From: a virus
Lineage: Duplodnaviria > Heunggongvirae > Uroviricota > Caudoviricetes
DNA length: 4,429 nt
Strand: one strand, 5' to 3'
Virus record (IMG/VR): IMGVR_UViG_2660238209_000015
The notes beneath the pieces were generated by a model, which had not been told where the DNA came from, searched no databases, and saw only the letters and a list, made by a program, of their open reading frames with translations. Below are positions 1 to 4,429 of the stretch, in pieces. The position numbers were made by a program, and so were the translations under genes. Numbering within the stretch: the stretch's first letter is position 1; each line of letters opens with the position of its first letter.

Positions 1-890
1 GTGTTGTACTGGGTGCCGTAGGTATTTTTCCAGTAATACGTCGTGTCACCACAAATCCACGGCACATCTGCAGCACTGCCACCATGGCACTGCGCGTTAA
101 ACACGGAGAGGTCAGCACGAAACTGTGTCAGCATGGCTGTAAACAGCGCAGGTTGCTGTGCGTGGGTGGCGGCGCTCATGTCAAACTCTCCCTGCATCCA
201 GCACACCGCCAGCAACACATTTTTCGGGTTCTTCTGTAATGCAGCTTTGGTGCGCGCAATCAGGTCCTGATATAACGGTTTACCCACACCCCAGCGCGCC
301 GAATCCTGGCTGGCCCCCGTGTCCGCACTGAATGTCCCCTCCGCGCCCTGGGTAAATGCCGAACCACCACGACAGCATGGTACCAGCAGGATCCCCGCGT
401 TATTCGGGATATACGGGAGCAGTTTTTTGGCAATATGTAACCCCTGGCCGACACAGCCGTACTGCCCTTTGCTCAGGTCTGCCTTCGGATGATTCAGCGT
501 ACTCATATCCTGCACATCATGCAGGCAGTGGTCGGCCGGAATAATATCGTTATATCTGCAGGCAGCCCCACCCGGCGTAACTGTACTGCGGCGCGCCAGC
601 TGTTTAATGCGCGGATCCGGAGCATCGTATGAATCCGGAAGCGGAAGCCCTTCCCCGTAAGCCATTGCATTGGACTGCCCGGCCAGTACGATGACGTAGT
701 ACCAATCCGGCTCAGTTGCACCACTGACCACCACATCACCTTCTGCTGCAATCGCCTGCATCAGGGTATAAGGGGTTATGGCCACCGGACTACCAAACGG
801 CTGCCAGCCCTCTTTCAGTTTGTGTGTCAGCTTTTCCGCAAGGTCTGACGGCGACGCCGCCCTGACCACGTCATAGTGTTTAAATGCCAT
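1..890 (-). CDS. nanS: Prophage-type sialate (9-O-acetyl-Neu5Ac) O-acetylesterase, NanS-p-like; N-terminal 296 codons only, gene continues past the left edge of the window
   Basis: Manual minus-strand translation from ATG at 890..888 is open for 296 codons to position 1 (MAFKHYDVVRAASPSDLAEKLTHKLKEGWQPFGSPVAITPYTLMQAIAAEGDVVVSGATEPDWYYVIVLAGQSNAMAYGEG...). It is missing from the supplied ORF track, presumably because it has no in-window stop. A GQSN motif (catalytic-serine block of the SASA/SGNH esterase family) sits ~70 aa from the start, after a short N-terminal domain as in prophage NanS-p proteins. Strong SD GGGGAGGAA lies 4 nt upstream of the ATG. Position downstream of the tRNA cluster matches Stx-phage/lambdoid late-region synteny. 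Family assignment is from recalled motifs, not a search. Confidence 0.8.
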   Translation of the reverse strand, partial: MAFKHYDVVRAASPSDLAEKLTHKLKEGWQPFGSPVAITPYTLMQAIAAEGDVVVSGATEPDWYYVIVLAGQSNAMAYGEGLPLPDSYDAPDPRIKQLARRSTVTPGGAACRYNDIIPADHCLHDVQDMSTLNHPKADLSKGQYGCVGQGLHIAKKLLPYIPNNAGILLVPCCRGGSAFTQGAEGTFSADTGASQDSARWGVGKPLYQDLIARTKAALQKNPKNVLLAVCWMQGEFDMSAATHAQQPALFTAMLTQFRADLSVFNAQCHGGSAADVPWICGDTTYYWKNTYGTQYN

Positions 891-893
891 TAT

Positions 894-901
894 TCCTCCC
901 C
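894..901 (-). promoter_or_regulatory. Shine-Dalgarno site of the nanS-p-like gene
   Basis: Minus-strand sequence GGGGAGGAATA immediately precedes the ATG at 890; GGAGG core with ~4-nt spacer. Confidence 0.6.
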
Positions 902-1069
902 TTTCCGGGATTTTCCTCAACAGTTGCGGGCCACGGTCCGGCCACAAGGAGAATCAAAAGAGGAGAACCGCAGCCCGCAAAACGAAAAAGGCCGCGCAGT
1001 TGCGCAGCCTTATAAACCCTGGTTAAAATCCACACGATAAAAATGACAATGCAAGTATCTCATGCTGTT

Positions 1070-1095
1070 GCCCGAACCCACTCGGGCTTTTTTTT
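1070..1095 (+). terminator. Rho-independent terminator oriented on the plus strand, opposite to the surrounding phage genes
   Basis: Stem gcccga (1070-1075) / tcgggc (1082-1087), 6 bp with 5 G:C, loop acccac, followed directly by T8 (1088-1095). In the minus-strand reading the hairpin is followed by AACAGCAUG, not a U-tract, so it is unidirectional. Confidence 0.55.
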
Positions 1096-1413
1096 GCATG
1101 TAAAAAGGCTCCTGCGATGAGAAGCCTGGATATATGCCTAATCTCTGTATACAGCATGATGCCGGGTGCCTCCCGGTGAATTCTGCAATGACCAGACAGA
1201 ATCCGCAACTTGCCTATACAATACGCAACCAAACATCTGTCATTATGCCCCGCCGCTCAGGGGGATTCATCATGCAGGATTTTTTTAACAAACGCTCAGC
1301 ATGTCAGGCAACAGTCAACTGCCTGAATTGTGAGGCATTTAACATTTCACTGTCCGGTGTCTTTCCTGTAATAAAAAGCCCGCAAAAGAGAGTCAGGGCA
1401 GATAAGTGTGGTG

Positions 1414-1490
1414 TGGTGCGTTGTACTGGATTCGAACCAGTGACCGATTGCTTAGAAGGCAATTGCTCTGTCCGGCTGAGCTAACAACGC
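1414..1490 (-). tRNA. argO: tRNA-Arg (anticodon UCU), argO-like, as carried by lambdoid/Stx prophages
   Basis: Minus-strand sequence GCGTTGT-TA-GCTC-AGCCGGACA-GAGC-A-ATTGC-CTTCTAA-GCAAT-CGGTC-ACTGG-TTCGAAT-CCAGT-ACAACGC-A-CCA folds as a canonical cloverleaf: 7-bp acceptor stem, GGTTCGAATCC T-arm, anticodon loop with TCT at 34-36, encoded CCA. Confidence 0.9.
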
Positions 1491-1503
1491 AGAATACCGA
1501 TAA

Positions 1504-1569
1504 TGGACCGCCACCGGGGACTCCGAATCTCGCACAGGGTGACGTTCTTTCCTGATGAGCTAGTGGCGG
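1504..1569 (-). pseudogene. Degenerate tRNA-like element (possible argN-type remnant) between the two intact tRNAs
   Basis: Minus strand CCGCCAC-TA-GCTC-ATCAGGAAA-GAAC...GAGATTCGGAGTCCCC-GGTGGCGG-T-CCA. It has a perfect 7-bp acceptor stem (CCGCCAC/GTGGCGG), discriminator plus CCA, and a recognisable TAGCTCA D-arm. It is only 66 nt, with a truncated anticodon arm and a non-canonical T-loop (TTCGGAG). It sits 1 nt from the tRNA-Ile2 3' end and 13 nt from the tRNA-Arg 5' end. Confidence 0.3.
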
Positions 1570-1570
1570 T

Positions 1571-1646
1571 TGGTGGCCCTTGCTGGATTTGAACCAGCGA
1601 CCTGGCGATTATGAGTCGCTCGCTCTCACCACTGAGCTAAAGGGCC
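1571..1646 (-). tRNA. ileZ: tRNA with CAU anticodon, most similar in architecture to minor tRNA-Ile2 (ileX/ileZ type, lysidine-modified); reads as Met by anticodon alone
   Basis: Minus strand GGCCCTT-TA-GCTC-AGTGGTGA-GAGC-G-AGCGA-CTCATAA-TCGCC-AGGTC-GCTGG-TTCAAAT-CCAGC-AAGGGCC-A-CCA, 76 nt, canonical cloverleaf, anticodon CAT. The acceptor stem and TTCAAAT T-loop resemble E. coli ileX as I recall it, more than elongator tRNA-Met. Confidence 0.88.
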
Positions 1647-1686
1647 GATTGCTGAATAATAACGACGCATGATTAACTCCGCAATC

Positions 1687-2745
1687 TCATCCGTTACGAA
1701 TGATTAAATCCTGTACTTCCCGCACCGTCTGCTCAAAACGTTCAGTCTCCAGTTCAACGCCAGTTGCACGACGTCCCAGCGCCATCGCTGCTTTCACTGT
1801 CGACCCCGACCCCATGAAGAAATCTGCAACCAGGTCTCCCGGACGACTGCTTGCGCTGATTATCTGCTGCAACATTTCTGCCGTTTTTTCGCACGGATGT
1901 TTCCCTGGATAGTACTGCACCGGTTTATACGTCCACACATCGGTGTACGGCACCTGCACCGTCACACCGAAATACCGCCGCAGATGCTTATATTCACTCT
2001 GCAGCTCCGCATACTGTCGGTTCAGAGAGGCATACGTATCCACCAGCTGGTGGTGGGGCTTTTCCAGTTCACCCCGCTGATGCTTCTCTTCTGCCACCCG
2101 GGCAAACAGTGCCTGTAATTTCAGATAATCGCTTTCGTTCGGCAGCAGCCACTGACCGGCACTGAACCAGTGCGACACCATGTTTTTCTTTCCTGTGGCA
2201 TCTGCAATCTGTTTTGCCGTTATCCCCAGGACAGCGCGCGCATCACGAAAGTAAGCAATCAGCGGGGCCATCACATGCTGTTTCAGTGCCCTACCCTTCG
2301 CCTCATACCCGGCATCTTTCGGACGATACGGCCCCTGATAATGCTCTGCGAACAGAATGCGCTCTGTGGCGGGGAAATACGCCCGCAGGCTTTCCTTGTT
2401 GCACCCGTTCCAGCGTCCGGACGGCTTTGCCCAGATGATATGGTTCAGCACGTTAAACCGCTCACGCATCATGATTTCGGTGTCAGATGCCAGACGATGG
2501 CCACAGAACAGGTAAAGACTTCCGGCAGGTTTCAGCACCCGCCAGAACTGCGCAAGACACTGGTCCAGCCACTTCAGGTAATCTTCATCACCCGCCCACT
2601 GGTTATCCCAGCCCTCGGGTTTCACTTTGAAGTACGGCGGGTCCGTGACTATCAGGTCAACAGAATTTTCGGGTAACGACCGCATAAATTCCAGGCAGTC
2701 GGCGTTGATTAACTCACAACTGGATATTTTTACAGTATTAAGCAT
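1687..2745 (-). CDS. Orphan DNA methyltransferase, beta-class amino-MTase (N6-adenine likely; N6_N4_Mtase family)
   Basis: 352-aa ORF. Motif IV DPPY (…SVDLIVTDPPYF…) is near the N-terminus and motif I FxGxG (…DFFMGSGSTVKAAMALGRRATGVE…) near the C-terminus; this IV-then-I order defines the beta group. DPPY rather than SPPY favours N6-adenine. No restriction endonuclease partner is present in the window. Stop TGA at 1689..1687, 40 nt upstream of the tRNA cluster. Confidence 0.9.
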   Translation of the reverse strand: MLNTVKISSCELINADCLEFMRSLPENSVDLIVTDPPYFKVKPEGWDNQWAGDEDYLKWLDQCLAQFWRVLKPAGSLYLFCGHRLASDTEIMMRERFNVLNHIIWAKPSGRWNGCNKESLRAYFPATERILFAEHYQGPYRPKDAGYEAKGRALKQHVMAPLIAYFRDARAVLGITAKQIADATGKKNMVSHWFSAGQWLLPNESDYLKLQALFARVAEEKHQRGELEKPHHQLVDTYASLNRQYAELQSEYKHLRRYFGVTVQVPYTDVWTYKPVQYYPGKHPCEKTAEMLQQIISASSRPGDLVADFFMGSGSTVKAAMALGRRATGVELETERFEQTVREVQDLIIRNG

Positions 2746-2881: not shown

Positions 2882-2909
2882 AAATAAAAAAGCCTTCAGG
2901 ACTGAAGGC
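2882..2909 (-). terminator. Rho-independent terminator (minus strand) at the 3' end of the small ORF
   Basis: Plus-strand gccttcag-ga-ctgaaggc (2892-2909) is a perfect 8-bp inverted repeat (7 bp effective with a 4-nt loop), preceded on the plus strand by aaataaaaaa (2882-2891), which is a U-rich tract 3' of the hairpin on the minus strand. It overlaps the stop codon of the small ORF. Confidence 0.6.
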
Positions 2910-3093
2910 GTCTGTAACAACCAAACTGATAGTCTGCCAGACCCGCCATAACCAGCTGGGTCAGTATTAACTGGCAGCGTTCGCGTGAAAGGTAAGTATT
3001 CTGCGCAATCTCCCCGACTGTCGCCGGGTCGGTAACGCTTAATTCATTAAACACCACTCTGGCGGTTTCTGTCATATCCTGCTGTTTCAGCAT
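2896..3093 (-). CDS. Small hypothetical protein (65 aa), possibly a winged-helix/HTH DNA-binding protein
   Basis: ATG at 3093..3091 preceded by AAAAGGGAAAAAGAC (GGG-type SD, ~8-nt spacer). Product MLKQQDMTETARVVFNELSVTDPATVGEIAQNTYLSRERCQLILTQLVMAGLADYQFGCYRRLQS has a helix-turn-helix-like pattern reminiscent of small PapI/FaeA-type regulators (from memory, unverified). The ORF track extends this frame to 3216 (GTG start, 106 aa), but that extension runs through AT-rich sequence and abuts terminator T1, so the shorter form is preferred. Confidence 0.4.
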   Translation of the reverse strand: MLKQQDMTETARVVFNELSVTDPATVGEIAQNTYLSRERCQLILTQLVMAGLADYQFGCYRRLQS

Positions 3094-3216
3094 GTCTTTT
3101 TCCCTTTTCCGGTTAACGTGACACACCAATAACTCTTGTCGAAAAAGCCAGCAACCTGAAAGAACGGTATTAATAACCACCAGCGAATTTATTGCGCTGC
3201 TGTATATTACGGACAC

Positions 3217-3238
3217 AAAAAAACCACCTTCCGGTGGC
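3217..3238 (-). terminator. Rho-independent terminator (minus strand) ~95 nt downstream of the Q-like gene; tR'-like candidate
   Basis: Minus strand GCCACC-GGAA-GGTGG followed by TTTTTTT: 5-6 bp G:C-rich stem, GNRA-type tetraloop, then U7 (plus-strand a7 at 3217-3223, stem 3224-3237). Confidence 0.6.
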
Positions 3239-3334
3239 TTCCTTGTGCGAAAAAACTTGCATTTCGCCTCGCGATACAGCTTTGCGAAGCTTACAGGAAT
3301 TCAAGCTGTTTCTGCGTAAAAAAGCAAGCTTTTT

Positions 3335-3877
3335 TTATCGAAATGAATCGTGCATAGGTACATAAAGCATGTGTTCAGCCACGGCTAACCAACCTGCAAT
3401 ACGTTTCTCACATGTGCTGAAACACCATTCCGGGTGAGTACGATTTAAACATTCTGCCATTTTTCTCTTACTCATTCCCCGTCCTTCGTACCTTTGCCGG
3501 AGAATATTGATTAGCCCGGGATATTCCCCAAGCACCTCACTGATAACGCGATCAATAATCAACGCCTCTGTGTCTGTACAATGTGACAACCAGCTCTTCT
3601 GCTTCCCTCTGGTCATATCCCGAAAAAATGCCTCAAGTTCCGGTTTTTCCAGCCCGGATTTCTTCATGCTGCGTAAAACCTCATTAACTGCTGTTTTCGT
3701 CAGCTTTTTCGAAACCAGTAACCGGTTAAACATATTTCCGGATTTACCCCCACCGATATACGACCACCGCCCCCACATCCGTAATTTCCCCTGGATCCAG
3801 ACTGCTTCCAGCGTGTTCAGGCGTAAATGTTCGCCGCTTTTGCCTGTAATTTCCGGATATATCATATTTACGCTCAC
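3335..3877 (-). CDS. Putative late-gene antiterminator (Q-like) by synteny; function not confirmed
   Basis: 180-aa ORF with GTG start at 3877 (the first ATG is at 3865, giving 176 aa); stop TAA at 3337..3335. It lies immediately downstream of the rusA 3' fragment with a GTGA stop/start overlap, and is followed within ~100 nt by an intrinsic terminator, then the methyltransferase, tRNAs and nanS-p. This is the position Q occupies in lambdoid phages of the 82/DLP12 type (rusA-Q-pR'-tR'-late genes). An LRMWGRW segment loosely recalls a W-G-x-W segment in Q proteins as I remember them. No search was performed. Confidence 0.5.
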   Translation of the reverse strand: MSVNMIYPEITGKSGEHLRLNTLEAVWIQGKLRMWGRWSYIGGGKSGNMFNRLLVSKKLTKTAVNEVLRSMKKSGLEKPELEAFFRDMTRGKQKSWLSHCTDTEALIIDRVISEVLGEYPGLINILRQRYEGRGMSKRKMAECLNRTHPEWCFSTCEKRIAGWLAVAEHMLYVPMHDSFR

Positions 3878-4017
3878 TCACTCTCAATTTTGTAAATCTT
3901 CACGCCCAGCCGTCCCCCAGGAACGCGCTGACCGCGCACAATATTGATTTCATCAAACTGCTCGTCGTCTATGAGAAGTCCGGCATGCGTCAGCGCATCC
4001 AGTGGTGCTTTCAGGAT
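3874..4017 (-). pseudogene. rusA: 3' fragment (47 codons plus stop) of rusA, Holliday-junction resolvase, truncated at its 5' side by the IS insertion
   Basis: The minus-strand frame is open from the IS boundary (4017) to TGA at 3876..3874: ILKAPLDALTHAGLLIDDEQFDEINIVRGQRVPGGRLGVKIYKIESE*. This aligns with the C-terminus of E. coli RusA as recalled (…FDALTKAGFWLDDAQVVDY…KGGRLELTITEMGNE), with conserved DALT.AG, LDD.Q and GGRL. No start codon or N-terminal portion on this side of the IS. Confidence 0.65.
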
Positions 4018-4071
4018 TGAACCGCCCCGGAAATCCTGGAGACTAAACTCCCTGAGAAAGAGGTAAACAGG

Positions 4072-4398
4072 ATGACTAAAAATACTCGTTTTTCCCCCGA
4101 AGTCCGTCAGCGGGCGATTCGTATGGTTCTGGAAAGTCAGGATGAATATGACTCACAGTGGGCGGCAATTTGTTCCATTGCCCCAAAGATTGGCTGTACG
4201 CCGGAGACTCTGCGTGTCTGGGTTCGCCAGCATGAGCGGGATACCGGGGGCGGTGATGGTGGGCTCACCAGCGCTGAACGTCAGCGTCTGAAAGAGCTGG
4301 AACGTGAAAATCGTGAACTGCGCCGCAGTAACGATATCCTTCGCCAGGCTTCCGCTTATTTTGCGAAGGCGGAGTTCGACCGCCTCTGGAAAAAATGA
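4072..4398 (+). CDS. IS3-family transposase OrfA (HTH DNA-binding subunit), IS629-like
   Basis: 108-aa [111 protein letters not shown]; N-terminal HTH plus leucine-zipper-like C-terminus typical of IS3 OrfA. SD GAGGTAAACAGG upstream of the ATG at 4072. Confidence 0.9.
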
Positions 4399-4429
4399 TG
4401 CCACTGCTGGATAAGCTGCGTGAGCAGTA
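4395..4429 (+). CDS. IS3-family transposase OrfB (DDE catalytic subunit), first 11 codons only; -1 frame relative to orfA
   Basis: ATGATGCCACTGCTGGATAAGCTGCGTGAGCAG gives [11 protein letters not shown], overlapping the orfA stop. The A6 run (4390-4395) at the overlap is a plausible -1 frameshift site for an OrfAB fusion. Confidence 0.7.

Follow-up and report, generated by a model that had tools for sequence, protein, structure and literature searches.

A convergent small-RNA pair between tRNA-Arg and nanS-p at the stx-less cargo slot of a lambdoid prophage from Escherichia coli O111

Stx-converting phages carry stxAB between a tRNA cluster and nanS-p, and the 4,429-nucleotide stretch of DNA analysed here (the window) raises the question of what stands at this position when the toxin genes are absent. 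A preliminary description had placed 523 bp (891-1413) between the start of nanS-p and tRNA-Arg, coordinates that agree with ARAGORN and RefSeq, and had regarded this interval as a version of the slot that lacks stx and any convincing gene, whether ancestral or left by a deletion. We hold with high confidence that the interval is instead the right-hand border module of a lambdoid moron slot, in which a convergent dyad of Hfq-binding sRNAs adjoins a slot that is unoccupied.

Genomic setting of the interval

Taken along its minus strand, the window corresponds to the late-regulatory region of a lambdoid prophage, and it is 100 % identical to prophages in E. coli O111 strains such as FWSEC0005 and 11128. 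The gene order on that strand is IS1203 end, truncated rusA-like gene, DUF1133 Q-like antiterminator, small ORF, methyltransferase, CAU tRNA, tRNA-Arg, interval and nanS-p, and the features that flank the interval are as follows.

1-890, minus strand: nanS-p, a SASA-family carbohydrate esterase, 5' part; start codon at 890-888, the gene running off the window
1414-1490, minus strand: tRNA-Arg, anticodon UCU, argO type (ARAGORN; Rfam tRNA, 71.4 bits); argO3 in Sakai
1491-1570, minus strand: degenerate argN remnant, argN being the central tRNA of the ileZ-argN-argO cluster (aligned globally to 933W argN)
1571-1646, minus strand: tRNA, anticodon CAU, ileZ type (tRNA-Ile2; ARAGORN; Rfam, 72.5 bits), tRNA-Ile in RefSeq
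2745-1687, minus strand: DNA methyltransferase
3865-3335, minus strand: DUF1133 Q-like antiterminator
4018-4429, plus strand: end of IS1203 (IS3 family), with an ALIL frameshift pseudoknot at 4353-4429

The esterase is the RefSeq CDS WP_000874287.1 (L003 5040-6890) and is homologous to the esterases of phages 933W and 75/02. RefSeq has no annotation of any kind in 891-1413, and the same is true among the matches listed in complete-genome records. In the 80-nt spacer between the two tRNAs, the acceptor, D and T arms of argN can be aligned and the anticodon arm has lost about 11 nt; ARAGORN and Rfam report no tRNA at this remnant. At the other end of the window, IS1203 has inserted into the rusA-like gene that precedes the Q-like antiterminator, and the leftover CDS (3874-4020) is a partial pseudogene in RefSeq. 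The small ORF at 2896-3216 (minus strand) is a 106-aa GTG-initiated frame in the ORF list, as against a 65-aa hypothetical protein (2896-3093) in RefSeq.

The two convergent small RNA genes

Within and at the edges of the interval we recognise the following features, given in order of position.

988-1011, minus strand: intrinsic-terminator-like hairpin with a 10-bp stem (7 GC pairs), then TTTCGTTTTG; a presumed terminator
1000-1029, plus strand: putative anti-sRNA promoter read from the sequence, TTGCGC - 18 nt - TAAAAT
1035-1095, plus strand: anti-sRNA EcOnc03 of the AgvB/AsxR family, antisense to the late operon (Rfam, published sequence and terminator scan)
1096-1304, minus strand: STnc100-family sRNA, the EcOnc28 locus of Sakai Sp9 (Rfam RF02076; terminator at 1127-1106)
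1279-1307, minus strand: promoter-like site, CTGACA - 17 nt - AAAAAT (consensus scan, 9/12), a candidate promoter
1305-1347, minus strand: conserved 5' flank of the dyad and right-hand border of the cargo slot, shared with Stx2 phage from 1333 down and with Stx1 phage from 1347 down
1348-1370, minus strand: junction segment, TACAGGAAAGACACCGGACAGTG on the late strand, which has no counterpart in 933W or 75/02 in local alignments
1371-1411, minus strand: homologue of the post-argO hairpin, aligned to 933W (L004) 2370-2411

The anti-sRNA (1035-1094, plus strand) and the STnc100-family RNA (1304-1096, minus strand) are convergent, are flanked by tRNA-Arg and nanS-p, and have terminators that abut in the terminator scan, at 1070-1087 on the plus strand and 1127-1106 on the minus strand. 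The earlier statement that the interval holds no convincing gene is thus correct for protein genes, as the ORFs are not credible, and fails overall, as Rfam finds two sRNA genes. Homology to an unrelated conserved gene, which the preliminary description had set against its own reading, was found in the segment for RNA genes (STnc100 and the AgvB family) and for no protein gene.

In at least eight Sakai prophages (Sp3, 4, 5, 9, 10, 11, 15 and 17), Tree et al. (2014, PMC4104026) described convergent pairs of Hfq-binding sRNAs between the moron CDS that follows pR' and a conserved ORF further downstream; the anti-sRNAs EcOnc01 (AgvB), EcOnc02 (AsxR) and EcOnc03 have in common a conserved 3' part of ~42 nt and vary at their 5' ends. 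A 2021 review named these pairs 'dyads' and described stxAB as bookended by them. The interval is identical at 523 of 523 positions to the spacer between argO3 and ECs_1781 in Sakai Sp9, and because such dyads are published and this base-for-base identical region has been studied, the content of the gap is already known and the 523-bp stretch is an ordinary one. The Sp9 locus with its EcOnc03/EcOnc28 dyad has the same neighbours, namely the DUF1133 Q-like antiterminator, DNA methylase, ileZ, argO and nanS-p; the window differs in its host, which is O111 and not O157, in the IS1203 copy in the rusA-like gene, and in that homology stops at 4017, whereas the interval is without differences.

On the late strand, the match to STnc100 (RF02076) reaches 175.2 bits (gathering score, 47; E = 5.4e-41) and covers model positions 1-206 of 206, a full-length match far over the threshold. 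Alignments of this RNA across loci reveal conserved helices with variable segments between them, and these segments differ between the window and the Stx-phage copies, including a 12-nt insertion in the window, so that any targets may differ as well. The RNA is the counterpart of EcOnc27/sRNA103 of Stx2 phages, and the Northern probe for EcOnc27 matches 1124-1157 at 31 of 34 positions. An STnc100 RNA downstream of stx2B, overlapping EcOnc27/sRNA103, was reported earlier, and EcOnc28 was placed in Sp9 on the strand opposite EcOnc03 (Tree et al. 2014, PMC4104026). The tabulated EcOnc28 peak would fall at approximately 1155-1201 of the window, inside the STnc100 match, if we assume a shift of about +134 nt between Sakai record versions as estimated from EcOnc03. 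The promoter-like site could drive a transcript of ~175 nt, a size like the ~177 nt reported for EcOnc06. Its homologue in Stx2 phages, at ~235/247 nt, exceeds the ~175 nt predicted here, and the RNA may therefore be processed from a longer transcript. The PasD sRNAs of EPEC, which lie just upstream of an esterase gene, are kin to STnc100 (Zhu, Shabalina and Storz 2026, bioRxiv 10.64898/2026.05.13.724894). Weak Rfam matches in the gap (Leu and Phe leaders, MicA, SorY, suhB and P6) scored far under their gathering scores and sat on terminator hairpins, and we took them as chance.

On the plus strand, the published EcOnc03 sequence corresponds exactly to 1041-1091. Its 5' region (1035/1041-1054) is variable, whereas the 3' two-thirds are conserved and consist of a small hairpin and the Rho-independent terminator, with its stem at 1070-1087 and U-run at 1088-1095. 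The conserved region of ~42 nt, AGUAUCUCAUGCUGUUGCCCGAACCCACUCGGGCUUUUUUUU, aligns to both of the relevant Rfam models, ends in a Rho-independent terminator and is kept in 120 loci. Upstream, the promoter block GGCCGCGCAGTTGCGCAGCCT.ATAAACCCTGGTTAAAAT is near-invariant across EcOnc03, AsxR and AgvB loci and is followed by ~20 nt that are variable. The hairpin at 988-1011, which lies just upstream of the nanS-p leader and overlaps the -35 region of this opposite-strand promoter, is kept in all dyad variants. In Sakai Sp9, EcOnc03 was detected by Hfq crosslinking (CRAC), 5' RACE and Northern blotting (56, ~54 and 51 nt), was destabilised without hfq, and gave the third-largest AUC in Table S2, which covers orphan Hfq-binding sites (Tree et al. 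2014, PMC4104026). By identity with that copy, expression and Hfq binding would be expected of the O111 copy too. The dyad may therefore be pictured as an STnc100-family sRNA (1304-1096) facing a 51-56 nt EcOnc03 (~1041-1095), with back-to-back terminators, downstream of the Q-dependent late promoter.

The family models place the anti-sRNA between its characterised relatives. AgvB (RF02702) matches 1035-1094 at 56.6 bits (E = 4e-9), barely above its gathering score of 56 because the 5' region of EcOnc03 differs from that of AgvB, and AsxR (RF02703) scores 46.8 bits, below its gathering score of 63. Alignment to the Rfam models reveals that the 5' region, (CGAUAA)AAAUGACAAUGCA, is neither AgvB-like (CACAACA) nor AsxR-like. 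We did not file the RNA as AgvB, although this is the best-scoring model, given that the CACAACA GcvB-R1 consensus is replaced by AAAUGACAAUGCA; nor did we file it as AsxR, given the sub-threshold score and the absence of both the AsxR 5' region and stx2AB.

Comparison of whole dyads gives the same picture. The AgvB (EcOnc01)/EcOnc06 dyad of Sakai Sp10 and Sp17 has the same 3' domain, promoter and position, and is the top Rfam family for the window; the window, however, lacks CACAACA, the GcvB-target motif by which AgvB function is defined, and AgvB loci mostly have a terB-like gene in the slot. The AsxR (EcOnc02)/EcOnc27 (sRNA103) dyad of Sp5 and 933W occupies the same position, with abutting terminators between cargo and nanS-p. 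Its anti-sRNA promoter and 3' domain are conserved in the window and its STnc100-type partner is ~78 % identical, but the seed is CGAUUAUUAAAAC in AsxR and (CGAUAA)AAAUGACAAUGCA in the window, and stx2AB lies immediately upstream in Stx2 phages where the window has nothing.

By analogy with these paralogues, of which AgvB sponges GcvB and AsxR destabilises FnrS, EcOnc03 is most likely an Hfq-dependent sponge of a host RNA in the lysogen, acting through its 5' ~15-20 nt. We compared this 5' region with 19 sRNAs of MG1655 (K-12) using ViennaRNA duplexfold and shuffled-seed controls. The best predicted partners were GcvB R1 (-11.0 kcal/mol), MicC (-10.5 kcal/mol) and SgrS (-12.3 kcal/mol), energies equalled by 44-77 % of shuffles in a test that has low power for short seeds. 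The AgvB-GcvB control was recovered at -19.5 kcal/mol, equalled by 3 % of shuffles, in contrast to the GcvB R1 pairing of the window seed, which is no better than shuffles. The AsxR-FnrS pairing took top rank and yet was not above shuffles, and FnrS is not predicted by duplexfold as a target of the window seed.

The toxin slot in Stx phages and in other prophages

The location of the toxin cassette can be read from the order of features in 933W, which is ileZ-argN-argO, hairpin, stx2A, stx2B, a 486-bp spacer and the esterase. Window 1414-1797 corresponds to 933W (L004) 2372-1970 at 83 %, and window 789-1333 corresponds to 933W 4291-3749, homology resuming 46 nt past the stx2B stop. Homology with the Stx1 phage 75/02 begins at window 1347, ~40 nt past the stx1B stop. 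Both flanks of the cargo are adjacent in the window, 1411-1371 matching 933W 2370-2411 and 1333 downward matching 933W 3749 onward, so that the ~1.34-kb cassette of 933W corresponds to a point. The toxin position is a junction of ~23-37 nt (1348-1370, at most 1334-1370, the 37-nt value being that from 933W alone).

The window is therefore, as first proposed, the stx-less counterpart of the Stx-phage slot: its tRNA side aligns to the 933W ileZ-argN-argO cluster and its esterase side to post-stx2B and post-stx1B sequence. The idea that the 520 bp are themselves an empty slot does not survive, since window 891-1333 has its homologue in the 486 bp that separate stxB from nanS-p in 933W; apart from the post-tRNA hairpin, nearly all of the gap is conserved spacer that Stx phages also carry, encoding the convergent sRNA pair. 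Nor did the suggestion that toxin promoter or coding remnants might be found there lead anywhere. Searches of 891-1413 with the 933W stx2 cassette and the 75/02 Q-to-stx1B region (blastn-short and tblastn) gave none, the matches being chance ones of 9-14 nt with E at least 0.38. The hairpin that follows the tRNA, which the 933W annotation gives as a possible terminator upstream of stx, has a predicted stability of -6.0 kcal/mol in the window versus -15.8 kcal/mol in 933W, so that transcription begun at the tRNA promoter may continue into the STnc100-type sRNA.

Scanning IMG/VR for the pattern of the conserved anti-sRNA 3' domain gave 120 loci (L005-L124). Across 124 loci, the anti-sRNA 5' regions fall into three discrete types, AgvB, EcOnc03 and AsxR, the window being of the EcOnc03 type. 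The slot holds stx2AB in all 19 AsxR-type loci (19/19). In EcOnc03-type loci it is empty like that of the window (n = 17) or holds stx1AB (n = 7), and in AgvB-type loci it holds a terB-like gene (n = 53; Pfam TerB, E = 1.4e-16) or is empty (n = 14). These counts are descriptive only because the loci stem from many related isolates, and it is in this redundant sample that seed type correlates strictly with cargo type. In four loci (L007, L013, L081 and L101) a junction 99 % identical to that of the window adjoins an AgvB-type dyad, which indicates recombination within the dyad. In addition, the allele is present at an identity of at least 99 % in 356 complete-genome records.

The gene that occupies the slot in AgvB-type loci is a 143-aa TerB-domain frame on the late strand that is sometimes frameshifted (L014 and L059, at offsets of 417-899 from the anti-sRNA; L006 has a broken copy). 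Some AgvB-type loci have two more small ORFs, of 69 and 70 aa, ahead of tRNA-Arg.

Alternative readings and possible roles

Three other explanations of the interval can be weighed against a border module with an sRNA dyad. The gap might encode a small protein, either in the 116-aa frame at 1134-1484 (plus strand) or in the 69-aa frame at 1232-1023 (minus strand), both of which are present as the preliminary description had listed them. The two frames have zero Pfam matches, and there is no RefSeq CDS among the records listed; PHROG matches of ORFs over 1023-1484 exist but are limited to tiny families of unknown function, phrog_27294 (1.3e-18), phrog_24488 (2e-11) and phrog_23494 (5e-14), together with phrog_4647. 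These families are probably over-called ORFs on the same sRNA and tRNA DNA in deposited phage genomes. Moreover, the 116-aa frame is antisense over tRNA-Arg and is split between two separate PHROGs, and it shrinks to 55 aa in 933W and is absent in 75/02; homologous loci that are 77-83 % identical have interrupted frames or none, with indels that are not multiples of three. With Pfam silent, the PHROG families tiny and the frames not conserved, we rejected the protein-coding reading of these ORFs, and a small protein is extremely improbable. It also seems very improbable that the interval is a regulatory spacer alone, consisting of terminators and the nanS-p leader, with Rfam matches to non-expressed relics. 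The presence of three terminator-like hairpins inside 140 bp and the degenerate post-tRNA hairpin would suit such a spacer, but the Sakai Sp9 copy, in which Hfq crosslinking, Northern blotting and 5' RACE revealed EcOnc03, has the identical sequence, and the conservation of the promoter block and 3' domain of the anti-sRNA, with seeds in discrete types, is a pattern of selection on an RNA.

The third explanation is that of a deletion scar, in which stxAB once stood between tRNA-Arg and the dyad and was then lost. Both flanks of the 933W stx2 cassette are present and adjacent in the window, an EcOnc03-type anti-sRNA is the type that adjoins stx1AB in Stx1 phages (the seven loci above and 75/02), and the argN remnant and weakened post-tRNA hairpin suggest a decaying neighbourhood. 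Against this stand the lack of any stx promoter or coding remnant among the chance matches described above and the mosaic nature of the flanks: the tRNA side is Stx2-like at 83-85 % and the dyad is of the Stx1-phage type, while Stx1 phages have no tRNAs within 4.5 kb, so that no simple deletion starting from one of the two known phage types gives the window sequence. Furthermore, the identical junction is also fused to AgvB-type dyads, and the number of complete-genome records with at least 99 % identity fits a stable allele. The scar that the preliminary description had named as one option is left unsupported, with no toxin-derived sequence remaining and no sign of a recent deletion, and we regard a past loss of stxAB as unlikely.

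A border module with an sRNA dyad has little import beyond annotation, where it is of use for prophage annotation and for mapping where toxin cassettes enter and leave. Two regulatory RNAs that have been described experimentally lie in a stretch that is blank in RefSeq in the E. coli records examined, and the Shiga-toxin slot proves to be a junction with sharp limits and not a 0.5-kb void. The biological question that is touched is what the abundant, Hfq-bound EcOnc03 regulates. The tracking of seed and cargo could be taken to reflect functional coupling, each sponge retuning host sRNA networks for the neighbouring cargo, and EcOnc03 would then be a Stx1-associated sponge for some core sRNA. 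We think this quite unlikely; the plainer reading is physical linkage of neighbouring DNA in a sample rich in related isolates.

The late-strand hairpins probably serve in insulation. As long as Q has not modified them, polymerases that start at tRNA or sRNA promoters would be stopped at three of these hairpins, after tRNA-Arg, at the 3' end of the STnc100-type RNA and at 1011-988, and would thus probably be kept from entering nanS-p and the lysis genes. This idea is modelled on the established control of lambda late genes.

Just 3' of the Q-like gene, within 3217-3334, the late strand also has a strong terminator-like hairpin at ~3244-3218 (GCCACCGGAAGGTGG then T7) that has no Rfam family match. 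At the corresponding place Stx phages have the short pR'-tR' transcript from which the sRNA StxS arises.
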